Of a stretch of DNA of 64,000 bases, positions 3,509-63,486 are shown one piece after another (within the stretch, counting starts at the first letter, position 1; every line of letters starts with the position of its first letter). The position numbers and the translations under genes are program-made. The DNA is from Candidatus Saccharimonadota bacterium (GTDB lineage: Bacteria; Patescibacteriota; Saccharimonadia; Saccharimonadales; Saccharimonadaceae): NCBI GenBank assembly GCA_017460065.1, contig JAFUBT010000003.1:7134-71133 (forward strand), read 5' to 3'. A model generated the notes under the pieces. It saw nothing but the letters and a program-made list of their open reading frames with translations, did not search any database and was not told the origin of the DNA.

Positions 3509-3873
3509 TGGTGGAGCTGCCGGATACTGCCTCCGGGTCCGAAAAATCTTCAATCATGCAATCTACGAGCATAGTCTGTTCTTTTATCTTGGCGGGGACA
3601 AATCAGCTGGAATAGACAAAACTAATCTGCGGCCATGACTGGATTTTCGTGCAACTTCTCGTCACGGAGGTCACCTTAATGCCATATCTATGATACCTCT
3701 ATGCCCTATGGCAATCGCGCACAGAGGCAAGCCTACTAAATTAGGCTAAAGCGTAAGCTGGCATGTATGCCACGTGCTTACTAGCAGTTTTTTCTGCATT
3801 TATGGACTGTACTTACGGTACAAATCGACTCGCCTGCATGTTGTTAATAATCCGTCTAAGCTTTGTCAGCCCC
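3509..3873 (-). ncRNA. ssrA: tmRNA
   Basis: Minus strand starts GGGGCTGACAAAGCTTAGACGG and ends GGACCCGGAGGCAGTATCCGGCAGCTCCACCA. The acceptor stem has the G3:U pair. Tag frame GCA GAA AAA ACT GCT AGT AAG CAC GTG GCA TAC ATG CCA GCT TAC GCT TTA GCC TAA encodes AEKTASKHVAYMPAYALA. Confidence 0.9.
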
Positions 3874-3936
3874 AACTACCGCCATTTTATCACAATCATG
3901 CTTTTCTTTCAATCTACCACCCCTTATACTAGCCGC

Positions 3937-5451
3937 ATGTCTACTGCAAAATGTTACTCTGCTATTCCGCTCGGCTTCACTGGGCGCTCCATCACTGTCG
4001 AATGCGACAGCCTGCATGGTCTGCCCGCATTTAATATCGTCGGCCTGCCCGGCCGCAGCATCGACGAAAGCCGACTTCGCATTCGTTCTGCTATCAAGAA
4101 CTCCGGCTTTCGCTTCCCAGCAGATAGGATCACCGTCAATCTCGCCCCCGCAGACCTTCGCAAGACTGGCACTGGTTTTGACCTACCTATCGCCGTAGAC
4201 ATCCTCGTGTCATCCGGCCAACTCCTCCAACGCGACCTCGAGCAGCGTGCCTTCATTGGCGAATTATCCCTCAACGGAGGCATTAAAGCCACGCATGGCA
4301 TCATCAACGCCATCGAAGCCCTATCCAGCAAAATGCTCCGCGAAATCTATATTCCTGTCGACAATGCCGCCGAGGCCGCACTCATTGCCGACCAACACAC
4401 TATTATTCCCGTACAATCGCTCCGCCAACTCTGACTACATCTGAAGCAAATTCACCCCATTTTACCCCTGAGCAAAAATGTCAAAAATACACAAACAGAT
4501 AACCATAAGCGTCTTCTACTAGATCATATATCTGGTCAGCACGAAGCTAAGCGCGCCATTATCATCGCAGTCGCCGGCCGCCACAACATCCTTCTACATG
4601 GCCCACCCGGCGTTGGCAAAACCATGCTCGCCCAGGCCGCCCGCGACCTTCTTCCGCCCGTCAGCCACGACGAAAGCATCGCTATCACCAAGCTTCGTTC
4701 TCTTAGCTCCCCCAACCTCGCACCCGCCAGTCAGCGCCCTTTTCGCAGCCCACATCATAGCTCAACTCTTAGTAATCTGATCGGCAGCAAACTCAGTCTC
4801 CTCCCGGGCGAAATATCTCTGGCCCACCACGGCGTCCTCTTCCTCGACGAATTCCCCGAATTCTCCAGCCAGGCCATCGAAGCTCTCCGCACTCCACTTG
4901 AGACCAAACAAATCACTCTCTGCCACGCGAACACTAAAATTACCTACCCCGCTGATTTTATACTCATTGCCGCTATGAATCCCTGTCCTTGCGGCTACCA
5001 CAACACCGGCGTGCGCAGCTGTAATTGCACGCCTCACCAACTCTACAAATACCAAAAGAAACTTTCCGGGCCCATCCTCGACCGTATAGATATGACCGTT
5101 CAACTACAAGCCATCGACGCCTCTGTTTTATTAAAAACCACAACGAATAGCACTCGCCAAGATGCTAGTGCTAAAACCGCCATCGCCCGCGCCTACCACG
5201 CCCAAACTCAGCGCTACCACTCCCCCGCCATCACAAACGCCGCGCTTAATTCTGTCAGCGTCTGCGAACGACTCAAACTCAGTCCTAGTGCTCGCCAATT
5301 ACTCAATGAGGCCAGCGCAAAACTCCAACTCTCCGCTCGTGCCTACTTCCAAACTATCAAAATCGCCCAAACTATCGCCGACCTCGATGCTGTGCCTATT
5401 ATCGATGCACCCCAAATCGCCGAAGCTCTTCGTTACCGCCGTCCATTCTAA
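3937..5451 (+). CDS. comM: ComM/YifB Mg-chelatase-like AAA+ competence protein; one reading frame interrupted by a single in-frame TGA at 4432-4434 (pseudogene or readthrough)
   Basis: The N-terminal Lon-like domain (MSTAKCYSAIPLGFTGRSITVE...) runs to the TGA. The same frame continues LHLKQIHP...HISGQHEAKRAIIIAVAGRHNILLHGPPGVGKTMLAQ (Walker A) and joins ORF 4624..5451. The ORF-track start at 3763 overlaps tmRNA and is rejected. Confidence 0.8.
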
Positions 5452-7744: not shown

Positions 7745-8644
7745 CTACCACTCTGCCCGCTGCGTGTGCAGGTCGATTATCTTATTAACTTCAGCATCCG
7801 CCTCGGTATTCTTACTACGCGGTACATGCGTAAAGCTGAACGAATCAAGATTTTCCAGCAACTTTAGCACATCGCTATACACCTGCATCAGATCTTTATT
7901 CTTCACTTGGTACACCCCGTTCAGCTGATTCACCATCATCAGACTGTCGCTCATAAAGTTCACCTTCTTGTAGCCCAGTTCGATTGCCTGCTCTAACCCC
8001 TCTTTCAGGCCATAATACTCTGCTAACCGGCTATTCGACATCCCCAGAAATTCTCCGCCCCGCTTAATTTCCTTGCCGTCCGCATCTAAAATATAATACC
8101 CAACCCCGCTCGGCCCAGGGTTGCCCCGGCTACCGCCATCGGTGTAAACCGTAATCACTCCACTCGCAGTCAGATTGCCGCCTTCACTCTCCTGGCCAAA
8201 ATTCGCCATCCGCTCAGCCAGCTTCGGTCGGTTTGCCTTATTTTGGATAATCTGCAATACCATCCCCGACGCTTCATCGAGTCGCAATTCGTTCACCCGT
8301 TCGACCTCTTGCCAACTATAGGCAACGTGACGCTCATTCGTCAGCTTTATCTCGGCCTGCGCATCAAAATTCACTCGAAACACCACGAACAAATTCGCCA
8401 AAGCCGAAGCCGATTCGAGATTCGTAAAGGTCACGACATCTTCCAGCATTAACTCTTGCGCTTGCACCGCTAGATTCTCGTAAATAATCCGCGCCATCGC
8501 TTCATCCGGCTGTTCGCCGAATACAATCTTCCCTGTCGGCAACTCATAATTATCCATACCAACCACGCGCCCCGCCGCGCGTTTCAAGAGCAACACTTTA
8601 CCCTCGTGCTCACAGATTGCCGTCACCCGAATCCGCTGTTTCAT
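7745..8644 (-). CDS. two-domain protein: N-terminal Nudix-like domain fused to C-terminal RNase HI
   Basis: C-terminal half VITVYTDGGSRGNPGPSGVGYYI...AEYYGLKEGL...HVPRSKNTEADAEVN is RNase H-like. N-terminal GKIVFGEQPDEAMARIIYENLAV resembles a degenerate Nudix box. Confidence 0.7.
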   Translation of the reverse strand: MKQRIRVTAICEHEGKVLLLKRAAGRVVGMDNYELPTGKIVFGEQPDEAMARIIYENLAVQAQELMLEDVVTFTNLESASALANLFVVFRVNFDAQAEIKLTNERHVAYSWQEVERVNELRLDEASGMVLQIIQNKANRPKLAERMANFGQESEGGNLTASGVITVYTDGGSRGNPGPSGVGYYILDADGKEIKRGGEFLGMSNSRLAEYYGLKEGLEQAIELGYKKVNFMSDSLMMVNQLNGVYQVKNKDLMQVYSDVLKLLENLDSFSFTHVPRSKNTEADAEVNKIIDLHTQRAEW

Positions 8645-23824: not shown

Positions 23825-24307
23825 TTATGCCAGTTCTTGGAAATAGTACCATTCGGCGTGCTCGTCTGCCGTCTCGCCCAAAACCGACAATAGTCGCATC
23901 AACTGCGTTGCGGCAATGTAGCCTCCGAGCTCTTCGCTCCAAAAATGCGCACCGCATCGATCGGCCGGAATATGGCAGTTAAAGGGTAGCCGCTGCTGCA
24001 TGCCATAATGCCGCTCTATTGTAATCGATAGCGACAATAGCGGACCATAAGTCCATTCCTCCATCGGTGCCGCGACCAACATTAACTCGAACTCGTTGTC
24101 CCACAGCTCAAAGCTAGCTGCGATACCGCTCTGCATGGCATGTTCGCCATCCCAGCCAAAGAAGCACAACAAGTCTTCGAAATGCAGTTCCCAGCCGCCT
24201 TCGGGTAGCCGTTCTACGAAGCCCATTTGCACCGCAAATTGCACCGCATCACTAACTTGACCGGCACAATTTCGCCATGCGAAAGCTCCCATTCGGAACA
24301 CCTCCAT
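23825..24307 (-). CDS. hypothetical acidic Trp-rich cytoplasmic protein
   Basis: 160-aa ORF with no recognisable motif. Confidence 0.4.
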   Translation of the reverse strand: MEVFRMGAFAWRNCAGQVSDAVQFAVQMGFVERLPEGGWELHFEDLLCFFGWDGEHAMQSGIAASFELWDNEFELMLVAAPMEEWTYGPLLSLSITIERHYGMQQRLPFNCHIPADRCGAHFWSEELGGYIAATQLMRLLSVLGETADEHAEWYYFQELA

Positions 24308-24392: not shown

Positions 24393-24468
24393 GGGGTGTT
24401 AGCTCAGTTGGTAGAGCGATTGGTTCGCAATCAATAGGTCAGGAGTTCGAATCTCCTACACTCCACCA
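24393..24468 (+). tRNA. tRNA-Ala(CGC), CCA encoded
   Basis: GGGGTGT acceptor with G3:U70, anticodon loop TTCGCAA. Preceded by TGc TATAAT at 24370-24378. Confidence 0.9.
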
Positions 24469-24507
24469 TATTTCCCGTCAGTTTGTCGGGGCTTTTTTAT
24501 GTGCCAA

Positions 24508-25203
24508 TTATTCAACCAGCATCTCTACTAACAGTACGTCTCGATATAATCGTGCATTCACATCACAAGTCGACAGCATCAATAGCTTTCCGCCAACATG
24601 TTCGTCTCGCCAATTCGTCGCCTGTTGTCGTAGCCGTGCAAGCACATAGTTATTCTTAGCCCGTAAAAAACTATCCACACGGTACAGTTCATCTGTTGCA
24701 TCAATCACGACATACGCCAACACTCGCAGTCGGACTTGCCGCCGTCTTATCGTCAACTCACCACTATCATGCTCTGCAAAATACTCCTCATCGGCAAAGC
24801 GACTAATGTCTCCGAACATCCGATGACCATCCATCCGGTGTCCATAAATCACTGCAAAATCATCGCTAAAATCTCGCGCATTCCGATAATCCAAAAAGAT
24901 ACTTCCCGCCGTCGCATATTCATCCCGATAATTGTGCCGCAAGTAATAGTTGTTGTCCGCCGCTTGCATAATCGGCTGGTTAATCTGCGTCTCATCAAAT
25001 TTAATCCAGCCCACTAAGTTTGCGCTGGCCGCCGCATCCGCCAAGACCACTTCCGCCTGCGCCTCGTCCGCAAACACCGGTGCGCTCTGCATCACCTGCC
25101 GCGCATCCCACAAGGCATAACCACCCAAAGCCAACATTCAGACCACGATGGACCACATTATCGTTCGTAAAATCACCTCCACCCACCGCAAGCATCTATT
25201 CAT
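24508..25203 (-). CDS. srtB: class B-like sortase; N-terminal membrane anchor interrupted by in-frame TGA at 25138-25140
   Basis: GWIKFDETQINQPIMQAADNNYYLRHNY, GSIFLDYRN, VIYGHRMDGHRMF and LMLSTCD (TLxTC). Own translation from ATG at 25201-25203 gives MNRCLRWVEVILRTIMWSIVV*MLALGGYALW, a TM helix spanning the stop. Confidence 0.75.
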
Positions 25204-25513
25204 CAACAATCCCCCTCACTCGCAACAATGCCAGCACGCGCCCTTTTATTTCGCCACCGTTCATTGCAGGCAACTCGTCAATTCGCCAACCGTTTTTGTC
25301 ATACAATATCACGTCGCTGTCGCCATATTGCCGCCATAATCGCTCATATATCACCAAATCGCCATCTCGCAACGTGGGGTTTTCTTCGCCCGTTGCCCGG
25401 TAAAATCCCAACACCTGCGCAAAACACAGTCAGCCCAACATCAGCAAACAGCCAATTCGCACCAAACACCCAATCTCGAGCCTATCCCGCCACCGTTTTG
25501 TAATTTTCAGCAT
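25196..25513 (-). CDS. SipA/LepA-like signal-peptidase-I homolog lacking the catalytic Ser; in-frame TGA at 25430-25432
   Basis: Own translation from ATG at 25511-25513: MLKITKRWRDRLEIGCLVRIGCLLMLG*LCFAQVLGFYRATGEENPTLRDGDLVIYERL... The S26 box GxSMxPTLxxGD appears here as GEENPTLRDGD. Confidence 0.55.
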
Positions 25514-25564
25514 ACTATACCACTTTAAAGGCCGCCACCATTGCAACGGCCTCGCCTGATTCCT

Positions 25565-26638
25565 CTAGTTTTTCTTTTTCGAAATCGCCCAATACACGCA
25601 AACGCCAGCTATGCCAATAATCGCAATTCCCACGAACGGCAGCACCATCGTCGACACCCCAGTCGCCACCGAACCGTTCCGCATATTATCAAAGCTCGTC
25701 ACATTCTCGGCACTAAAGCTCATCCCGCTCGGGTTGCCACCATATTCACTGGCGGTTTGTTTGGCGCGAGATTGCTTCGTACTTACGCTCATGTCGCCAT
25801 CAACATACGTACTGTAACTATCTGCGTCCAGCTCCGTGATGCTATACTCAAGTCCTAGCGGCAATTCGTTCTCTCCGTTATTGCCAATCTGTACGCTCTG
25901 ACCGTGTTTCAAATACACAAAGTTCTCTTCGCCCACGGTATAGTAGCGCTGCGTCTGGATGCTCTGTCCACCATATTCAACTACCGTATCCTGGCCCGTA
26001 ATCGAAAACACGTCACCCAACCGCGCAGTCGGAAAATCTATCCGGAATTTAAAGTACTCATCGGTGTCCGCATTGTCGCCCGATACAGTCTTGGATAACT
26101 GGATATGAGTCCGACGGGCCATTGAATCAAACATCAAGTTATCCGTCTTCCGACCACCAGCATCCGTTACCTGATCGGCCACCGTTGCAATTAAATTACC
26201 CGTCGGTCTAGTGCCGTCCAGCTCATTACGAGCTGCAATTAGCACCGTATAGGCTTGCATGTCATCAATTGGGTAATTACGCTCGTCCGACGACGCAATC
26301 TCACGAATCACGATTCGGTAGTCCCCTACCTTCGTAAAAGTTAAGTCTGACAAATTCACAATCTTGTCGCTCTGCGCAATCCCACCATTCGGCGTCGCCG
26401 ACACTCGCATACTAAAATTCGCCAATCCGCCAATCTCTGCCGGATTATTCTCGTCGGCCGTCATCGAATAGCTAAATGTTACTGCTACCGGGTTTGCGAC
26501 GTTCGATACGCTCCGCACAATTCTTACATTATTTTCGCCTGACGTAACGTGCGTTTCCGCTGCCATCACCGGCGCCGTTGCGCCCGCCTGCAACATAATC
26601 ATGGCCGCAAAAGCCAGGCCTTGCCAAAACTTTTTCAT
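25565..26638 (-). CDS. sortase-dependent backbone-pilin-like surface protein (isopeptide/CnaB-type folds)
   Basis: Signal peptide MKKFWQGLAFAAMIMLQAGATAPVMA. LTFTKVGDYRIVIREI (T-antigen-like motif). E-box-like LEYSITELDADSY. C-terminus SVATG plus a hydrophobic stretch and KKKN. Confidence 0.6.
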   Translation of the reverse strand: MKKFWQGLAFAAMIMLQAGATAPVMAAETHVTSGENNVRIVRSVSNVANPVAVTFSYSMTADENNPAEIGGLANFSMRVSATPNGGIAQSDKIVNLSDLTFTKVGDYRIVIREIASSDERNYPIDDMQAYTVLIAARNELDGTRPTGNLIATVADQVTDAGGRKTDNLMFDSMARRTHIQLSKTVSGDNADTDEYFKFRIDFPTARLGDVFSITGQDTVVEYGGQSIQTQRYYTVGEENFVYLKHGQSVQIGNNGENELPLGLEYSITELDADSYSTYVDGDMSVSTKQSRAKQTASEYGGNPSGMSFSAENVTSFDNMRNGSVATGVSTMVLPFVGIAIIGIAGVCVYWAISKKKN

Positions 26639-26802
26639 TTTCCTCCTTATGGTTCTTTTTACGGATTCATGGCCACGAATTCGTCTAGCCCTCATTTAAA
26701 CACCCCTCCAAAAAACAAAAAAGCACAAGTACGACGTTTTGCAATCACCTGCTAAAATACATCAAAAATCCCCCTCTAACAGGGGGATTTTATTGAACAA
26801 AT

Positions 26803-28587
26803 TTATTGTTCGTTTTTGACAGCTCGGTAGCTACCTGCGGCCACCAGCACGCCTAGGGCCGATAGCAACATGCCGTAGCTTTCCGTCGTCAATACGTCAG
26901 CTGTCTTTGGGTTTGAGCCGTCCGCGACAACTTCTTCCGCAGCAGATTCCTCTGTCGGAACAGCCTCGTCATCGCCACCCTTACCCGGCTCTTCCTCTTC
27001 CACTACATAACTCACGAAAGGCTGTTCGAAATCCTCTGCCTCACGTTCGTTGCCTTCCGAGTCAACCGGGTACAAAGTCGCAACTTCATTCGTTGGCACG
27101 CTATATTCGCCCGCCTCCGTAGCCTTATTAACTAACTGCAGTATATAGCTCAGCGACACCCGCTCAAAGTTAGAAATATTCCGCAAAATATTCCAAGTAA
27201 AGCTTTCACCATCGGCGTCATAGTCAATCGTGAATTCGACCACGCCATCCGCGTTCGCAAACTCAATCGTGCTGCCATTGACGGTCTTTGTTAGAGCGGC
27301 CTTCTCTGCGCCGTCCACACCCGTCACGACCAAATTGAAACTGCCCAAATCATACAAATCAAAGTCTTCGCCAATCACGCCGACGACCTTGCTCCCCCTA
27401 CCTAGCAAGTACAAGATATCTTTGCCAACTTTCGCAAAATCCATCGTCTCGCCGTTGTTCATCGCATCAATCAAAGCTACCGTCAAAGGGCTATTTGAAC
27501 CAGATTTGACTGCATAGACATGGTAATTTTCGGCCATCTGGCGCCACTGCTTGAGCGCTTCAAAGATAGCCCGATCCATTGACAAAGCGTGCTCTTTCTC
27601 GCCGTATGGCACATAAACAAAGTCTTCGCTTGGTGCACCGTAGTAGATGTTTGTACCATTAAAAGGGTAGGCATAGCTGTCACCATCGGCCGCAACCCAC
27701 TCTTCTACCTGCGCCATGTAGGCATCCCAGTCGCCACCGGGAATACCGTAGCTACCCTCTTTTACGCCACGTGCAACCGACCAAGACGACGACTCGCCCC
27801 AGTACTGCGCACTGTTTTTATATAACTGGTAATAAATATCCATTACCGTGCCGTCTTCCGACGTCCACAGACGCGTCAAGCCGTCCGTCACTAAAATAAC
27901 GTGTTTGCGCGTATTCGTCACCTCGGCGTCAGCCTGCAACAGCTCTTCAGCCCTCAAGAGGCCGTCCTGGATATTTGTACCACCATACGGCGGATTCTTA
28001 TAGCCTTCTCGAATCAAAGCCTTTATCGCGTCAACATTATCGGCCGACAATTCTACTAGCTCTTGCGTAACTTTTGCATTGCCCTTGAACACAACGATGG
28101 CAATCTTAATTTTCGTACCGTCATCATTCTGCACCTGCGCATACAAATCATCAACCAGTTGTACGGCATCATTAATAGTTGCGCTCTTACAGCTCGAATT
28201 ATCAACCACGAACACAATATCGCTGGCCAAGTTTTCTTCGCTCGACGGCAAAGACAAGGTCACCTCAGTGCGATCATTCTCGTCCAATTCAGTCGCCTCC
28301 TTTGATTTCGAGACGTCCCATTCTTGCGCCGCCGGATCATCGGTGTCCGGCCCCTCGCCTTCATTGCTTGGCTCACTTGTGGTCTGGCCGTCAGCCGTAC
28401 CCCCATCATCCGCGCCGCTAGTCGTTTCGGCATCACCGTTCGTGGCTGGCTGCTCTTCGGCCGTCGGCGTGCTTTCGCTAGCCTCCCCACCGTCTAACGC
28501 GTAGACACTATGCGTCGACATGCCAAAACAGAAGCCAAGCGCCAAAAAACCGGCTAGCACCCACGGAAAAGCCCATGTCTTTTTCAT
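26803..28587 (-). CDS. von Willebrand factor A domain surface adhesin with NPKTA sorting signal
   Basis: Signal peptide MKKTWAFPWVLAGFLALG, acidic linker, VWA core DIVFVVDNSS...ILVTDG. C-terminus NPKTAD (26899-26913) plus a TM helix and RAVKNEQ. Confidence 0.7.
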   Translation of the reverse strand: MKKTWAFPWVLAGFLALGFCFGMSTHSVYALDGGEASESTPTAEEQPATNGDAETTSGADDGGTADGQTTSEPSNEGEGPDTDDPAAQEWDVSKSKEATELDENDRTEVTLSLPSSEENLASDIVFVVDNSSCKSATINDAVQLVDDLYAQVQNDDGTKIKIAIVVFKGNAKVTQELVELSADNVDAIKALIREGYKNPPYGGTNIQDGLLRAEELLQADAEVTNTRKHVILVTDGLTRLWTSEDGTVMDIYYQLYKNSAQYWGESSSWSVARGVKEGSYGIPGGDWDAYMAQVEEWVAADGDSYAYPFNGTNIYYGAPSEDFVYVPYGEKEHALSMDRAIFEALKQWRQMAENYHVYAVKSGSNSPLTVALIDAMNNGETMDFAKVGKDILYLLGRGSKVVGVIGEDFDLYDLGSFNLVVTGVDGAEKAALTKTVNGSTIEFANADGVVEFTIDYDADGESFTWNILRNISNFERVSLSYILQLVNKATEAGEYSVPTNEVATLYPVDSEGNEREAEDFEQPFVSYVVEEEEPGKGGDDEAVPTEESAAEEVVADGSNPKTADVLTTESYGMLLSALGVLVAAGSYRAVKNEQ

Positions 28588-28779
28588 ACTTTCTCCCATT
28601 CCTTATGTTTTCCGACCGCCACAGCCGCATGGCAGCCTTCTACCAGAAACATATACCGCCTACCACTAATTTGCAATCATAAGCATAATATTTTATAATA
28701 TACTTTTTACGCTTAAAATTATTGCTCACCCTCCCCTGCGCCATTACAGTATTATTGTAAAAATCACAACACAAGAAAA

Positions 28780-36846: not shown

Positions 36847-37953
36847 CTATTCGCCGTTTTCGCCAGGAATCTCAGTTAATTCATTGTCGACGGTTTCTCC
36901 GCCATCCGCAGAATCTTCGAGATTGATATATTCTTTCACCTTGTCTTCGTCGCGAATCTTCTGTAAATCATCTGCTAACTTCGAGAAGCGAATCCAGATC
37001 GACTCATAACTCACCTTCCCCTCGCTGCGTGCGGTCAATTTTACAATGTAATAACCATCACCGTTCTTCGACACGAACACATCCGAAATATCGCCAATTT
37101 CTGCCAAAGCATAGGCTTGTGCTGCCCTACCACTGTCCAAATTATTCACACTCACCGCTGAGTCAGTTTTTTCATAACTAAAAATATTGCTATTGCTATA
37201 CTCTTGCACCAACGCTGCCATATCGCCATCGTTTTGCGCCAGTTTAGCCTTAATCTCGGCTGCCATATCTTTCGCTGCCGTATCCACTTCCTCGGCCACC
37301 TTTCGCTTGGCCAACGACAGGCTAATCAGGCGTCGGTAATTGCGCAGTGACAGACCAAAATTATCCTTCACAATCTCTTCGAACACCTCATCGCTGCGAC
37401 GTTCACCATTAATCGTCTTATGCTCTTCAATAAGCGCATCAATTTCTTCATCACTTACACTCAGCCCCAATTCATCCATCTTCGCCAACACATAGCTGTA
37501 GTCTTCGGCCTCGTTCATCGCTTGACGTTTGTAGTGGCTAATCTGACTCTTTGCATCTTCGGAATCGTCCAACTTACCGCTCTGATACTCAATCGAGCGA
37601 ATACTACTCCGGTATAGCATCAAATAATCGCTATAACGCACTTTATGCCCATCAATCTCGGCCACAGGCAAACCCAAAACACTCGTAAAACGATATGCCA
37701 CCTCGCTGGTTGTCTGGAAATGATACAACTGCAGATAGCCGACCGTCACAAAAGCCACCACGGCCACCACGGCAATCAGAATCGTGTTAATCACTAAGCG
37801 ATGCTTAGCATACTGGAACGGATAGCGATATTTTTTACCGTTCGCCAATACTTCTTCGCGACTTTCTTCAATATTCTTTTGCGTAACCGCCGGGCTCTTC
37901 TTGGCCTTTTCGTTTTTGTCGCGCTGCTTTAGTTTGTCTGCAATTTTCATCAC
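36847..37953 (-). CDS. membrane-anchored protein, possibly SurA/PpiD-like chaperone
   Basis: 368 aa with an N-terminal TM helix. Weak resemblance to the SurA N-terminal domain. The ATG overlaps the upstream TGA (ATGA). Confidence 0.35.
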   Translation of the reverse strand: MMKIADKLKQRDKNEKAKKSPAVTQKNIEESREEVLANGKKYRYPFQYAKHRLVINTILIAVVAVVAFVTVGYLQLYHFQTTSEVAYRFTSVLGLPVAEIDGHKVRYSDYLMLYRSSIRSIEYQSGKLDDSEDAKSQISHYKRQAMNEAEDYSYVLAKMDELGLSVSDEEIDALIEEHKTINGERRSDEVFEEIVKDNFGLSLRNYRRLISLSLAKRKVAEEVDTAAKDMAAEIKAKLAQNDGDMAALVQEYSNSNIFSYEKTDSAVSVNNLDSGRAAQAYALAEIGDISDVFVSKNGDGYYIVKLTARSEGKVSYESIWIRFSKLADDLQKIRDEDKVKEYINLEDSADGGETVDNELTEIPGENGE

Positions 37954-38435
37954 TCTTCTTCCCCACCTTCGCCATGCTTGGCATTCTGGATTTCATTATA
38001 CACGTTTTCCGGGTGGCTGACCATGCTCAAGCTCAGGTCTCCCACCCCCGTCTGAATCAAAATCGTACCATAATCAAACAGCGAACCAAACACCCCCATC
38101 ACCCCAAAAGAAATACTCTGGATATTATCCAATTCCAAGTCCACCACCGTCCGCTTAAACATCCCCTTTTGCCGCACCTGTCGAATCCGCTCATTCGTCA
38201 CCAAATAATAACTAAAATGCCACAACATATAGCTGTACAGATAACCCAACACCCCCAAGACAATACAGGCCACCCACAACCAAAACAACTGCGGGTCGTC
38301 CGGCATCAAAATCATTGGTAGGGCCCCACCCCCAATTAGCAATAGCATCACCAAGAAACCCCGAATCGTCGTCAGAATATGTCGCCGAAATACCAGTACA
38401 ACCTCTTCCCCCGTCCGCTGTCCTTCAAAGTCCAT
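37950..38435 (-). CDS. bacterial PH-domain (YdbS/YdbT-like) membrane protein
   Basis: Two TM helices followed by YLVTNERIRQVRQKGMFKRTVVDLELDNIQSI. Confidence 0.55.
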   Translation of the reverse strand: MDFEGQRTGEEVVLVFRRHILTTIRGFLVMLLLIGGGALPMILMPDDPQLFWLWVACIVLGVLGYLYSYMLWHFSYYLVTNERIRQVRQKGMFKRTVVDLELDNIQSISFGVMGVFGSLFDYGTILIQTGVGDLSLSMVSHPENVYNEIQNAKHGEGGEEE

Positions 38436-40212: not shown

Positions 40213-41022
40213 TCAAAGCCCCGCCCCAATAAACTTCAACAACCACCCCTGGCAGAAAAACACTCCCAAGACTCCCGCCACCAAGAACGGCCCAAACGGA
40301 ATTTGCATATGCTTTGACCGTTTTAGCACAGCCACTGGCAACATCACCAGTGACCCCAATAAATTCGCCACAAACATTGCAAACATTGCCAACCAAAAAT
40401 TTCCCAACATCAACGCCAGCGGTACGCACAACATCCAGTCACCCCCGCCCACCAGCTTCTCACTACTCAACCGATACAACAGATAGTAAAACACCGGCAT
40501 AATTAGCACCGCCCCCACAAGATTCTGCCAATCCACCACTCCCGTCATCTGGAAGCTTTGCCACAAATTTAGCGCTAAAAACAAAATCCCCACACCCCAT
40601 GCCCCGTACAACAGTTTTACGGGCAACTCACGCCATTTTATGTCATAAACGCATAAAACCGCGAAAATCGTCGAAATCACCAAAAACAGCCCAAATTTGG
40701 CCATTTCCAGCCCATCTAACGCCGACAAGGCCTCAAACCACGGCCACAATGCATAACTGAGCGCAAAGACTAAAGCCGTTCCGATTTCCGTCAAAATTTC
40801 GGCACAACCAATCTTTTTGCCACATTTGCGGCATTTGCCCCGCAGAGCCAACCAGCTCACAATCGGGATATTGTCGTACCATTGAAGACGATATTTACAG
40901 TGCATACAATGCGACCACTTTGCCTTATCCCCCTGGCGCAAACGCCAAGCCTGACAACAAGCAAACGATCCCATCATCGCCCCCAGCACAAACAGTACTA
41001 TCATCACGCCTATGTTTACCAT
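40213..41022 (-). CDS. pilD: prepilin peptidase (A24 family)
   Basis: N-terminal Cys pairs (CMHCKYRL, CRKCGKKI), polytopic, with GGGDWML. Confidence 0.8.
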   Translation of the reverse strand: MVNIGVMIVLFVLGAMMGSFACCQAWRLRQGDKAKWSHCMHCKYRLQWYDNIPIVSWLALRGKCRKCGKKIGCAEILTEIGTALVFALSYALWPWFEALSALDGLEMAKFGLFLVISTIFAVLCVYDIKWRELPVKLLYGAWGVGILFLALNLWQSFQMTGVVDWQNLVGAVLIMPVFYYLLYRLSSEKLVGGGDWMLCVPLALMLGNFWLAMFAMFVANLLGSLVMLPVAVLKRSKHMQIPFGPFLVAGVLGVFFCQGWLLKFIGAGL

Positions 41023-59683: not shown

Positions 59684-59988
59684 CCCCTCTACAAATAAGG
59701 CCTGTTTTTAAGGTACTTTGCAGATTATACCACGAATCTCTATAAAATCAATGCGCCAGCAAGCCCACCGCGCATTTCGCATGACATATCAATACTACTC
59801 ATCACCATGGGCTATGACGCTATTTTTTGCCGCGGTCTTCAGGAAACTCACCCTATCACCGCAGCACGGAGTCTTCTGTTTCATCTTCAAAAATCTTAAT
59901 TACTGTTACGAATTTACCGCCGCAGCTCTTACATAGCAGCCCTACGAGCCTAAGCGACAAAGACATGGACCACATTGAAGACGAAAAT

Positions 59989-60114
59989 ACGGGCCGCACC
60001 CCAATCGTATTGTTGGCATTGTTGCCATTCGCATTACCATTGTTACCATTGAACACACCTGCGTTGGCGTTGTTGTTTTCGAAGTTGATCGGCGACACAC
60101 CCCACCACACAAAG
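59989..60114 (-). repeat. DGR template repeat (TR)
   Basis: 126 nt aligning without gaps to 62117-62242. Read in the VR frame it encodes FVWWGVSPINFENNNANAGVFNGNNGNANGNNANNTIGVRPV, rich in AAY codons. It lies 48 nt downstream of the RT stop. Confidence 0.9.
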
Positions 60115-60161: not shown

Positions 60162-61442
60162 TTACCACAAGCGCAACGCAATTCCCTCCGACGAACACTC
60201 CATCAACTCATCTCTCGTTTGTTCCAAGTAAGCCAATGCCATGTCGCCCCTTAGTCCTGCATAAAAATCCCCCATCGCATAAAGCATATTTCTATGCCGC
60301 AAAATCACCTCCGCCTCTCCAGCCGACCGACAATAAGCTCCATAATCCGCCAAGCTCCATCGAAAATCCGGCTGAGGCATCTTTCGTCGCACCGTAGTCG
60401 TCGCTCGCCAATAACCATAATAGCTCGCCAACGAGTGCCAATAGTCAAGTCTATCCTGTCGCGCTAGTTCCCGTAGACGCAACCGGATTCTTCGTCTAGT
60501 CCGCGGCGCCGCATCTACTCGTAACTTCGCCTCATGCGTGCGAAAACGAAAACCCAGAAACACAAACCCTCGCCGACAAGGGAATATCGCCGTCTTCGGG
60601 TTCAGCGCCAAATGATATTCCGTGTCTAGCTTCCGCTCTAATTCGCGCCACACTCGCCGCAGCTTAGCTTTACTAGTTGATAGAATCAAAAAATCATCCA
60701 TGTAGCGCACATAATATCTACAGCCCAACTTCTCCTTGATGTAGTGGTCTAAATCCGATAGATAATATATTGCCAAAAACTGGCTAGTCATAGCACCGAT
60801 ACTTAGCCCTCGTCCTTTCGTGTAGTGCGGTATATCCGTCCCATAACGATTGTTATAAAAGTCCACTGCTTCGTTAATATATTCGCTATCAGTTTCATCA
60901 ATAATCCTGCGCAATATATCCAAAACCTTTTCATCATACATTCGTCTGCGCACCTTTTTCAGCAAAATATCATGGTCAATACTATAAAAATACTTACTGA
61001 TGTCCAGTTTCAGCGCATATATTTCTTTCCCGGGTTCTCGCACCATTATTTGGTGAAAATAACGTTTCGTAAGCGCAATCCCCATTGCGCCACCTCTCCC
61101 CTTACGCGTTGCCACATTTGCCTCAATTAGGCTCTGCTCTAAATACGGTAATAGATAATTATTCGCCACAAAGTGGTTTACAATTTTATCCCGCACCGAC
61201 TGACTCATCACCAGACGCGCCTTTGGTTCAAAAATCATAAATGCCCGATACGGGTCAGGCCTATAGTCCCCCTCACGCAACTCTCTCAAGATACTATACA
61301 AATTTGCTTGCAAATTCATCGCAAAAATCGCCAGCTCTCGCTTGTTTTTGCAGGTCGTGCGCACCACACGCCAAGCCTCATACACTCTATCGTAGGTCAA
61401 GGCTTGGCCATATATCTCACGACTTCTTTGCCGTCTCTTCAC
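60162..61442 (-). CDS. DGR-type reverse transcriptase
   Basis: LSIGAMTSQFLAIYYL (the IGxxxSQ motif typical of DGR RTs) and YVRYMDDFLIL (YMDD). 426 aa with no maturase or endonuclease domains. Confidence 0.9.
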   Translation of the reverse strand: MKRRQRSREIYGQALTYDRVYEAWRVVRTTCKNKRELAIFAMNLQANLYSILRELREGDYRPDPYRAFMIFEPKARLVMSQSVRDKIVNHFVANNYLLPYLEQSLIEANVATRKGRGGAMGIALTKRYFHQIMVREPGKEIYALKLDISKYFYSIDHDILLKKVRRRMYDEKVLDILRRIIDETDSEYINEAVDFYNNRYGTDIPHYTKGRGLSIGAMTSQFLAIYYLSDLDHYIKEKLGCRYYVRYMDDFLILSTSKAKLRRVWRELERKLDTEYHLALNPKTAIFPCRRGFVFLGFRFRTHEAKLRVDAAPRTRRRIRLRLRELARQDRLDYWHSLASYYGYWRATTTVRRKMPQPDFRWSLADYGAYCRSAGEAEVILRHRNMLYAMGDFYAGLRGDMALAYLEQTRDELMECSSEGIALRLW

Positions 61443-61824
61443 GGTGTGCCCATCCGTAAGTAATTGTCTTCATCTCCAGCAATAGCGCTGCCACATGCTC
61501 CAATTTTGCAGATTTCACGCAATGCAAATCATAAACTTGTCTCAGTAGCATATCGGCCAAAGTCAGATGAATCTTCAACTCCGTCAGGTGCTTGCGCCGA
61601 ACATTTCCTACTGTAAAACTAGCCGCATAAATCTCTTGCGCAATCTTATACATTTCCTCCAACAAATGTATCCGAATGTCGCGATGCATATTCGGAATAT
61701 TGTTCGCAATTTGGCTTCGCACATAATTGTCCAAAGCATAAGCCTTATCTGCCAAACGAAACGTGTTGCTGTATTTATTATCCAAAGTCTTACTTAAGCC
61801 TTGTGTCTTTGTTCTCGTCGCCAT
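61417..61824 (-). CDS. avd: Avd-like accessory variability determinant (four-helix bundle family)
   Basis: 135 aa, basic and helical. Sits immediately upstream of the RT and overlaps it by 26 nt. Confidence 0.75.
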   Translation of the reverse strand: MATRTKTQGLSKTLDNKYSNTFRLADKAYALDNYVRSQIANNIPNMHRDIRIHLLEEMYKIAQEIYAASFTVGNVRRKHLTELKIHLTLADMLLRQVYDLHCVKSAKLEHVAALLLEMKTITYGWAHREETAKKS

Positions 61825-61881: not shown

Positions 61882-63486
61882 CTAGCGTCTGCGCAAACCG
61901 CGTCGTGCCACTATACTCCCCCCAACTACTACGACCGCAGCGGCGGCCATCACGGCAACCACGCTATCGCTCGTTGCCGGATTCACCGGTGTTTCCGGCG
62001 TCTCCTCTGGCGCCATTTCCTCATCTTCGCTCTCTGTCACCTCAGCGAGCGCCGTGAAAGGGTTTTCACGGCTGCCATCACCGTCAAAAGCGCCAAGCGT
62101 AGATTTTAATGAAACGACGGGCCGCACCCCAAGCGCATGGTAGGCAGCGCGGCCACGCGCATCACCAAAGTCACCAAAGAACACACCTGCGACGGCGTAG
62201 TCGCTCCCGAAGACGATCGGCGACACACCCCACCACACAAAGTTATCGTCAATGTAGGTACCCTTAGCATAGGCCGGATAACCGTTACCGGCCATAATCA
62301 TTTCGGTAGTGCTTAAGAGGCCAACCGGATATTTCAGGGTGCCGTTAGCGACCGTGTAGATGCCGCCCTGGTCAGTGTAATCGAAATTAACGGCGTTCAT
62401 CATGTTTGTTGAATCGTTCAGGCTACTATCTTTTTCCCGGCTGGCACCGTGATAGAAAGTATCGATGGTAGTATCGGTGTAGGAGTAGCCACATTGATCA
62501 AAGTTAGAGCCAAAGTCTGCATCCTTGGTAGAAAGTGAGCCACTGGCAAAGGTTTTACTGCCGTAGAAGATGGTGTCTTCAAGATACTCAGCGGCATCGG
62601 TCATATGTTCGGCATACCAGTTCTCTACGGCAGTTTTCGCCACGGAATCGTGCTCGTTTGCTGCCATCTTAGCAAGAGCAGTCTCCAAGGTATCTCCACC
62701 CGTGAAAGTAAGGAAGTAGCCATTTGTGTTGGTAGCGCTGCCGCGATAGTTTTCGTAGTAAACCTCAGAACAAGTGGTGCCGGTGGTGAGGCAGGTGTAG
62801 TGATGGCCGTTGTATGCGTTGGAGCCGCCAGTGACGGTATCCTGAAGCGTGTAGACCCCGTTGGCGTAAGTGACGTCATTGCCGAAGACGGTAGTGTTGG
62901 AAAAGCTTTTGCTAGTAGTTTCATAGCGCTCGCCGTACATATAGTACATGTCTGAGGGGGAGTTATAGCCGGCGTTGAACTGTGAAACGTCCGCAATGGT
63001 TCCCGGCCAGGTACTGGCGTCGTCAGGATTGAAGCTGTTTATCTTTTCCAAGCTCCAATCCGGGTCACCTAGACATTGGCCGTCGGTTGGCGTTCCATTG
63101 TATAACAGCTTTGTCCCGCCGGTTTCCGTAGTGCGTACAATCAGCCAGCACATGTCGTTCAGGATGACGTTATTGTCCGTCACGTTGCCACGATAGAAGT
63201 ACACTGGCTTGTCGTCATCTTTAGTTTCTTGAAGTATATACAAACCACCGATGTCGCTGATGGGGACGCCGTAGGTTTCGTCGACCTGTTCACCCGTTGC
63301 CGGAGCCTCGTTGAAATCTATCACGGTGTCTTTATCTGCCTGTGAGGCGAGATAATCGTAAAAAGTTTTATCGCCCGTGCCGGCTCCCGCCGCAAAAGCA
63401 TCTATCGGCGTCAGCACACTACTGCCCAGCAAAATACCGCCAGCAACCAGCGCGCCCAACCTTACACTATTCCTAGTTTGACCCAT
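61882..63486 (-). CDS. DGR variable surface protein: signal peptide, large N-terminal domain, C-type-lectin-fold VR domain, NPATS sorting signal
   Basis: MGQTRNSVRLGALVAGGILLGSSVL signal peptide. VR region NFVWWGVSPIVFGSDYAVAGVFFGDFGDARGRAAYHALGVRPVV. Tail PVNPATSDSVVAVMAAAAVVVVGGSIVARRGLRRR. Confidence 0.85.
   Translation of the reverse strand: MGQTRNSVRLGALVAGGILLGSSVLTPIDAFAAGAGTGDKTFYDYLASQADKDTVIDFNEAPATGEQVDETYGVPISDIGGLYILQETKDDDKPVYFYRGNVTDNNVILNDMCWLIVRTTETGGTKLLYNGTPTDGQCLGDPDWSLEKINSFNPDDASTWPGTIADVSQFNAGYNSPSDMYYMYGERYETTSKSFSNTTVFGNDVTYANGVYTLQDTVTGGSNAYNGHHYTCLTTGTTCSEVYYENYRGSATNTNGYFLTFTGGDTLETALAKMAANEHDSVAKTAVENWYAEHMTDAAEYLEDTIFYGSKTFASGSLSTKDADFGSNFDQCGYSYTDTTIDTFYHGASREKDSSLNDSTNMMNAVNFDYTDQGGIYTVANGTLKYPVGLLSTTEMIMAGNGYPAYAKGTYIDDNFVWWGVSPIVFGSDYAVAGVFFGDFGDARGRAAYHALGVRPVVSLKSTLGAFDGDGSRENPFTALAEVTESEDEEMAPEETPETPVNPATSDSVVAVMAAAAVVVVGGSIVARRGLRRR
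62051..62072 (-). promoter_or_regulatory. hairpin downstream of VR (candidate DGR target-recognition cruciform)
   Basis: gccgtgaaa-gggt-tttcacggc, a perfect 9-bp stem with a 4-nt loop, about 45 nt 3' of the VR end on the coding strand. Confidence 0.45.
62117..62242 (-). repeat. DGR variable repeat (VR)
   Basis: 25 mismatches to the TR over 126 nt. Every mismatch is at a TR position that is T on the printed strand, meaning A on the coding strand. 25 of the 34 TR adenines are substituted. Confidence 0.9.

Follow-up and report, generated by a model that had tools for sequence, protein, structure and literature searches.

A diversity-generating retroelement target of an animal-gut Saccharibacterium with a putative class-B-type sorting signal

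The variable protein of a diversity-generating retroelement (DGR) from a Candidatus Saccharimonadota bacterium is, judging from its sequence, likely to be a Sec-exported surface adhesin of this animal-gut organism, with its last ~50 residues forming a sorting signal of the class B (NPQTN-like) type and with a class B sortase encoded 37 kb away on the same contig as the most likely processing enzyme. The gene for this protein (hereafter the target) lies in the 64,000-nucleotide stretch of contig JAFUBT010000003.1 (GenBank assembly GCA_017460065.1, positions 7,134 to 71,133) that we refer to as the window; loci fetched from other assemblies carry L numbers and homologous proteins carry P numbers. 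An earlier reading of the same DNA, made without database searches (the sequence-only reading), had proposed a sortase substrate. The anatomy of the signal, its conservation, its occurrence on further surface proteins, and the class B assignment of the sortase all support that proposal, whereas we infer the cleavage itself, the pairing of this enzyme with this substrate, and the acceptor (the wall, as had been proposed, or a pilus).

Every part of a tripartite sorting-signal architecture is present in the target, i.e., a motif, a transmembrane (TM) segment, and a basic tail, together with an N-terminal secretion signal, and the NPATS motif, linker, hydrophobic helix, and RRGLRRR tail all lie exactly where the sequence-only reading had placed them (Table 1). 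The N-terminus is hydrophobic, MGQTRNSVRLGALVAGGILLGSSVLTPIDAFA|AG, and on inspection has no lipobox Cys, so that the protein is not a lipoprotein. NPATS stands 33 amino acids (aa) from the C-terminus, and by analogy with NPQT|N the scissile bond is predicted to be T505|S506. In an AlphaFold2 (AF2) model of the target (predicted local distance difference test [pLDDT] 85.8), residues 34-482 form the folded body, residues 483-507 are disordered, and residues 508-533 form a terminal helix, with residues 1-33 at a pLDDT of <50. An extension past the variable region (VR) exists as claimed, but it counts 75 residues rather than ~90; since ~25 of these also occur in homologues without an anchor, the true C-terminal extension is ~50 aa. 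Searches of the protein against Pfam and NCBIfam gave no match. Among the NCBIfam short sorting-signal models, the best match of the tail was to NF033846 Rumino_NPXTG (E 0.15, 12.4 bits against a cutoff of 23.5), and no LPXTG model matched it; among all eight tails compared with these models, a match to PGF-CTERM (E 0.002) was rejected because it covers only the TM and basic part, with no PGF motif.

Conservation of this tail was assessed among 794 homologues of the target, the closest named one of which (P0025) comes from Candidatus Saccharibacteria. In the orthologue set of 26 full-length Saccharibacteria sequences (45-78% identity), NP[QAP]T[SATVLI]D is present in every member (26/26), 32-35 residues from the C-terminus, and is always followed by a hydrophobic stretch and then a basic tail. 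The third position is Q in 23/26 and the sixth is D in 26/26; the sequence of the preceding linker is not conserved. Against a background of NP.T occurring 2 times in 12,645 residues of orthologue bodies, NPxTxD at a fixed C-terminal position is far above chance. The pentapeptide NPATS is thus a genuine motif, but its conserved form is better written as NPxTxD, with an invariant Asp after the five residues originally singled out.

Distant homologues (30-40% identity, from other taxa, one named Bacilli) have a VR-equivalent of the form GVRPxxSL...GDGT..PY and stop 20-25 residues past it, with the anchor absent. As these proteins end just after the VR, the NPxTxD tail can be regarded as a lineage-specific anchoring module. 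In some of them the N-terminus bears a type IV pilin (PF07963) or VWA module instead, and from such sequences the display system that carries the binding module appears to differ between lineages. In two loci of related Saccharibacteria (L004, 8347-13192; L006, 2830-8042), target-family genes form tandem triplets in which all paralogues have NPQTxD tails. No reverse transcriptase (RT) or Avd gene was called within 10 kb of these triplets, the copies of which are either not diversified or served in trans by a DGR elsewhere.

The signal is common to the target and to other surface proteins. The sequence-only reading had matched its NPxT motif to that of a VWA adhesin in the window, the NPKTA of which lies precisely at the position it had been given, and the match extends further: in related Saccharibacteria, every VWA tip adhesin adjoining the sortase ends in NPKTAD, NPKTED, NPNTQD, or NPNTAD, while NP[QKN]TxD followed by a TM segment and basic tail terminates eight SpaA/Cna_B-type surface proteins, including five SpaA/GramPos_pilinBB-domain proteins in L006 and a Cna_B protein in L011. 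SpaA, Cna_B, and VWA/GBS104-like domains are classic sortase-substrate types. Because NPxTxD ends many SpaA/Cna_B proteins away from pilus genes, it has the look of a general surface signal. This sharing also bears on whether the helix and Arg-rich tail might simply tether the target as a plain C-terminal membrane anchor, with NPxTxD kept uncleaved for structural reasons at the membrane interface. A TM helix and a basic tail do suffice for tail anchoring, and such an arrangement would sit well with the sub-threshold scores of the signal models and with the apparently interrupted sortase open reading frame (ORF) described below. We nonetheless hold it to be very unlikely, as an invariant NP-T-D at a fixed distance, common to unrelated ectodomains of the sortase-substrate type, is hard to explain otherwise, and a protein tethered to the membrane by way of a linker of 17 residues would hardly reach across the wall, which in Saccharibacteria is thick and of the Gram-positive type.

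That the only sortase in the window is class-B-like, as had been noted from the letters, is borne out by its relatives in the PDB. The ORF at 24508-25137 matches TIGR03064 with E 3e-40 (138-139 bits, below the cutoff of 153.75), and its relatives in the PDB are Listeria monocytogenes SrtB (5e-29), Bacillus anthracis SrtB (7e-27), Streptococcus pyogenes Spy0129 (2e-23), and the NPQTN-specific SrtB of Staphylococcus aureus (2e-15); every one of the 15 PDB matches with E ≤0.01 is a class B sortase. Catalytic residues H122, C213 (LSTCD), and R221 are invariant in an 18-sequence alignment. NPQT-type motifs are a hallmark of class B sortases. No second sortase was seen among window ORFs of at least 110 aa or in any fetched locus.

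The sortase gene is the last of an FCT-like pilus operon (24393-28599), the order of which (tip adhesin, backbone pilin, a protein of ~100 aa in the SipA position, sortase) is conserved in six species. The operon is also found in L001, L008-L011, and L016-L019, and a tRNA-Ala(cgc) follows it immediately in every species. Tip adhesins in relatives are rich in FctA and DUF7601 domains, reach up to 2,300 aa, and, among orthologues of the window protein, end in NP[KN]T[EQA]D. Backbone pilins end in [ST]V[AL]TG[VI], with the tail in the window matching TIGR03065 srtB_sig_QVPTGV at E 0.007, below cutoff. Because this backbone signal is SVATGV, the target shares its sorting signal with the tip adhesin and with general surface proteins, and not with the backbone pilin. 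In a pattern scan, the FCT-like operon or its sortase was detected in only 4 Saccharibacteria species representatives, a goat jejunum source among them, and the operon is possibly a horizontally acquired island.

Such a distribution of signals would also be compatible with a pilus-tip role, in which the target would serve as an alternative tip, attached by the pilus sortase to the DUF7601 backbone pilin and not to peptidoglycan, yielding a sortase pilus with a hypervariable tip. In its NPxTxD the target agrees with the VWA tip adhesin and departs from the backbone (SVATGV), the sole sortase seen belongs to the pilus operon, and DGR-diversified Bacteroides Type V pili provide a precedent. We consider this role unlikely, however, given the presence of the same signal on many SpaA/Cna_B proteins away from pilus genes, the 37 kb between the target gene and the pilus operon, and the failure of profile searches to detect any pilin-like stalk domain in the target.

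A further alternative, doubtful but to be taken seriously, is that the target is processed by another sortase, a housekeeping one with its gene beyond the window, with the class B enzyme only polymerizing the SVATGV pilin. More than half of the genomes in the candidate phyla radiation (CPR) carry a sortase family (PMC6744442). Several observations weigh against our favoured assignment and in part point towards such an enzyme: (i) the window represents 64 kb of genome, leaving room for a second sortase elsewhere; (ii) the sortase was detected by pattern scan in just the 4 species representatives mentioned above; (iii) L004 and L006, contigs that bear target orthologues and NPQTxD proteins, show no sortase within 10 kb; (iv) the sortase sits in a pilus operon with a backbone signal, SVATGV, strongly different from the motifs of tip and target, and may thus be specialized; (v) the NCBIfam short sorting-signal models match eight tails only sub-threshold; and (vi) the sortase ORF carries an in-frame TGA in its anchor, such that the full-length enzyme needs readthrough. 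On the other side, the tip adhesin within the operon bears the same NPKTxD signal, NPQT-type motifs typify class B enzymes, and a second sortase was absent from every fetched locus. We retain the class B sortase of the pilus operon as the most likely enzyme for the target.

As listed, the sortase ORF (24508-25137) lacks a membrane anchor; upstream in the same frame it continues as MNRCLRWVEVILRTIMWSIVV-TGA-MLALGGYALW, with a Shine-Dalgarno-like GAGGGGGA before the upstream ATG at 25203 and none before the internal ATG. Because the TGA interrupts the anchor, a full-length anchored sortase can be made only if the UGA is read through or recoded. Four independent assemblies of this species share this TGA while neighbouring codons vary among them, and sortase orthologues of five other species have in-frame TGAs elsewhere in the same region (5' regions compared: L001, L002, L003, L008-L011, and L016-L019). 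Opposite several of these codons, relatives carry Trp: the sortase TGA at position 7 in L008 aligns with a W in the window, that at position 10 in L001, L009, L010, and L011 with a W in P0134, and TGAs of the L011 sortase with the W in GIFALWD and with the invariant W of GWI. The TGA of the SipA-position gene (25430-25432) likewise has a W opposite it in L008 and in L009. From an all-against-all tabulation of residues opposite TGA, we used the rows for the sortase and the SipA-position gene only, off-frame ORFs having heavily polluted the rest. The product of a ComM gene (3763-5451) can be aligned over its entire length with Legionella ComM (E 1e-104), across an in-frame TGA at 4432-4434; as a clue to the inserted residue this codon is uninformative, aligning with an Asp in the Legionella protein.

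Over the window, 3 in-frame TGA codons compare with 172 TGG in 14,624 codons, and TGA ends 6/52 ORFs, one of these ends being the TGA inside ComM. Of the five genuine TGA ends, two (37950-38435 and 40213-41022, both on the minus strand) have TAA or TAG as the next codon; such tandem stops are what poor termination at UGA in this organism would lead one to expect. The L001 orthologue of the window gene at 23825-24307 ends in TGA exactly where the window uses TAA. With TGA used there as a terminator, and with only 3 in-frame TGA against 172 TGG, full reassignment of UGA is unlikely. Neither a tRNA-Trp nor a tRNA with a UCA anticodon turned up in tRNA scans of the window and 11 loci. The codon comparisons suggest leaky or programmed readthrough of UGA that inserts Trp, or its partial recoding to Trp, in a clade of Saccharibacteria, rather than full reassignment. 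The Saccharibacteria phylum is assumed to use the standard code, and no report of UGA readthrough in it was found in the literature searched; the in-frame UGAs in the sortase, SipA-position, and ComM genes raise the question of how stop codons are read in this phylum.

The same codons might instead mark a relic system, the sortase being a pseudogene through TGA nonsense and the sorting signals being the decaying remains of a set of Gram-positive surface proteins gained by horizontal transfer. All six species examined do have in-frame TGAs in their sortase, and the operon adjoins a tRNA-Ala and is rare among Saccharibacteria. Decay is nevertheless extremely unlikely in view of a catalytic domain that is intact and conserved (50-83% identical across species, with no other disruptions), TGAs that lie at differing positions and align with Trp in relatives, the Shine-Dalgarno-like sequence before the upstream ATG, and perfectly conserved sorting signals. 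The sortase would accordingly appear to be under purifying selection; it is probably made at a low level and is not obviously a pseudogene.

The DGR itself is complete (RT, Avd, and template region [TR]) and active in natural strains. Its Avd and RT genes lie downstream of the target ORF on the same strand, TR and VR are 80% identical with 26/27 mismatches at TR adenines, and the GC-rich 3' end of the repeat, TTGGGGTGCGGCCCGT, occurs only in TR and VR. Two target proteins from other samples that fall in the same 90% cluster (P0183 and P0184) differ from that of the window at 17-18 residues, 14-15 of them within residues 424-452, and their genes differ from it at 23 nucleotides of the VR. At the DNA level, 23 of the 28 nucleotide differences between the window and strain L014 are in the VR, the Avd/RT flank being 99.94% identical and the C-terminal 75 residues of the target being the same in both. 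It is because near-identical strains differ almost only in the VR that we regard the DGR as active in nature.

A second, tiny variable patch lies outside the VR, at 62486-62496 (target residues 331-334), where 5 nucleotides differ between strains (CAATGTGGCTA versus GCGCGTGGCTG, giving QCGY versus ARGC); the remaining target sequence outside the VR is identical. No TR segment matching this patch was identified, and the patch could be turned towards the binding site or mark a hotspot of recombination or of selection. Past the 3' end of the window, as seen in two loci of the same species (L014 and L015, 1-11605), a type IV pilus assembly cluster (PilM, three unnamed genes, and a PilB-like ATPase) is followed directly downstream by the co-oriented target gene.

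A lectin fold had been claimed for the variable domain, and the structural comparisons favour it by an indirect route. Foldseek with the whole AF2 model against the PDB gave no match at E <0.001, the best being the Thomasclavelia ramosa IgA protease (9qa6, E 6e-3, probability 0.96), and the best viral matches in BFVD were DUF6273 phage proteins (E 4e-4). The N-terminal domain of the T. ramosa protease is a DUF6273 domain (PMC12402451), and DUF6273 is reported to be a C-type lectin (C-lec)-like domain that is DGR-targeted in phage tentaclins (PMC10743442). Via these modelled matches a lectin fold is plausible, but direct matches to true C-type lectin folds were weak (Lcl C-terminal domain 8q4e, E ~1, TM-score 0.38; IX/X-bp; LOX-1). 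An AF2 model of the isolated VR domain (residues 330-485; pLDDT 48.5) was unusable.

Under the sortase-substrate reading that we favour, the signal peptide would direct Sec export of the target, and the C-terminal helix and Arg tail would hold it in the membrane until the sortase cuts NPAT|SD after Thr505. The enzyme would then transfer the target to an amine, either of a peptidoglycan precursor (wall) or of a lysine of the neighbouring pilus backbone. The acidic, Pro-rich linker would thus serve as a type of stalk holding the DUF6273/C-lec-like domain outward, and the RT/Avd/TR cassette would continually rewrite the binding face (residues 424-452) by adenine mutagenesis. A bolder scheme would make NPxTxD the general signal of a single class B sortase that is expressed only via UGA (probably read as Trp) and that loads the DGR protein as an interchangeable, hypervariable pilus tip for finding host cells, throughout a clade of animal-gut Saccharibacteria. 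We think it distinctly improbable that all of this holds; if it did, three features would be reported together for the first time: a sortase-displayed DGR target, a CPR sortase pilus, and UGA readthrough or recoding in Saccharibacteria.

Several known systems resemble parts of this arrangement. As in S. aureus SrtB/IsdC (NPQTN) and the B. anthracis and Listeria systems, the enzyme has a class B fold and catalytic triad, and the substrates carry a pentapeptide of the NP[QK]T type ahead of a TM segment and a basic tail. Unlike in SrtB/IsdC, here Ser or Ala and then an invariant Asp follow the Thr (NPQT[SA]D), the substrates are adhesins rather than haem-uptake proteins, and the sortase belongs to a pilus operon, its gene having an in-frame UGA. 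S. pyogenes FCT pili combine a class B pilus sortase (SrtC2/Spy0129) with FctA, which bears QVPTGV, the Cpa tip, and SipA. The operon described here matches these pili in gene order, running from the tip adhesin through the backbone pilin and the small SipA-position protein to the class B sortase; its backbone tail, SVATGV, resembles QVPTGV, and FctA and DUF7601 domains are found in the orthologous tip proteins. It differs from the FCT pili in that the tip carries NPKTxD and not VPPTG, the host is a CPR bacterium, the SipA assignment is by position and an E 0.044 match only, and no basal pilin or second sortase was seen.

With respect to the target, Legionella LdtA and Treponema TvpA are surface-displayed DGR variable lipoproteins in which a C-lec fold close to the C-terminus holds the VR. 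Those proteins are anchored by N-terminal lipidation and have the VR at the very C-terminus, whereas the target lacks a lipobox and has its anchor in the 75-residue extension. Another analogue is provided by the DGR-diversified Type V pilus tip adhesins of Bacteroides (Macadangdang et al., bioRxiv 10.1101/2024.11.15.621889), in which, as is proposed here, a cellular DGR diversifies a C-lec-type head on a surface-display module of a gut symbiont; Bacteroides, however, is Gram-negative and uses lipoprotein export and strand-exchange Type V pili, in contrast to a sortase-type C-terminal signal in a Gram-positive-type envelope. Among the DUF6273 proteins that gave the best fold matches, tentaclins are phage tail proteins without anchors, while the T. 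ramosa IgA protease, which also ends in a sortase motif, SPXTG (PMC12402451), is not DGR-diversified. The NPXTG-anchored proteins of Ruminococcus (NF033846), likewise from gut anaerobes, share an NPxT-type C-terminal anchor with the target, with the sub-cutoff match given above, but their Gly after Thr is replaced here by Ser/Ala and then Asp.

Table 1. Features of the target gene, the DGR cassette, and the FCT-like pilus operon, in window coordinates
Feature	Coordinates	Strand	Basis or remark
DGR target (variable protein) gene	61882..63486	-	ORF, 534 aa, TAG stop
Sec-type signal peptide, ~residues 1-33 (...PIDAFA|AG)	63388..63486	-	By inspection; cleavage site inferred from AXA rule
Variable region (VR), residues 415-459	62111..62242	-	Repeat paired with TR; strain variation
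Acidic, Pro-rich linker (putative stalk) TESEDEEMAPEETPETP, residues 484-500	61987..62037	-	Read from sequence
Putative sorting motif NPATS-D, residues 502-507 (NPATS 502-506 = 61969-61983)	61966..61983	-	Sequence and orthologue consensus
Hydrophobic membrane-spanning segment VVAVMAAAAVVVVGGSIVA, residues 509-527	61906..61962	-	Read from sequence
Arg-rich cytoplasmic tail RRGLRRR, residues 528-534	61885..61905	-	Followed by TAG stop
Avd accessory protein	61417..61824	-	NF033474 DivGenRetAVD E 1e-6, below cutoff; bAvd Pfam match in L013-L015
DGR reverse transcriptase (RT)	60162..61442	-	PF00078 RVT_1 E 1e-18
Template region (TR), 132 nt	59983..60114	-	Repeat paired with VR
VWA + GBS104-like Ig tip-adhesin-like protein, ends NPKTAD (26899-26913) + TM + basic tail	26803..28599	-	Profile search
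DUF7601 backbone-pilin-like protein, ends SVATGV (25658-25672) + TM + KKKN	25565..26695	-	Profile search
Small membrane protein in SipA position, in-frame TGA 25430-25432	25196..25513	-	Only TIGR02227 signal peptidase I, E 0.044
Class B sortase, full ORF with in-frame TGA at 25138-25140 in N-terminal TM anchor	24508..25203	-	TIGR03064, PDB relatives

Elsewhere in the window, the minus-strand gene at 7745-8644 encodes an unusual fusion of an N-terminal NUDIX domain and a C-terminal RNase H-like domain (RVT_3/RNase_H) that is unrelated to the DGR RT.

In the literature searched, we found no paper linking DGR targets to sortase or LPXTG signals and nothing relevant on sortases or sortase pili in Saccharibacteria. 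The known settings of DGR variable proteins are phage tails, lipoproteins, and the Type V pili of Bacteroides, to which covalent anchoring of the sortase type would add a display route in the Gram-positive style. Saccharibacteria are ultra-small, obligate epibionts for which host-recognition molecules are largely unknown, and the reading proposed here, if true, would identify a concrete hypervariable surface adhesin in these organisms. With a lineage-wide NPxTxD signal as a simple criterion, the whole surface proteome of these uncultured bacteria could also be listed.

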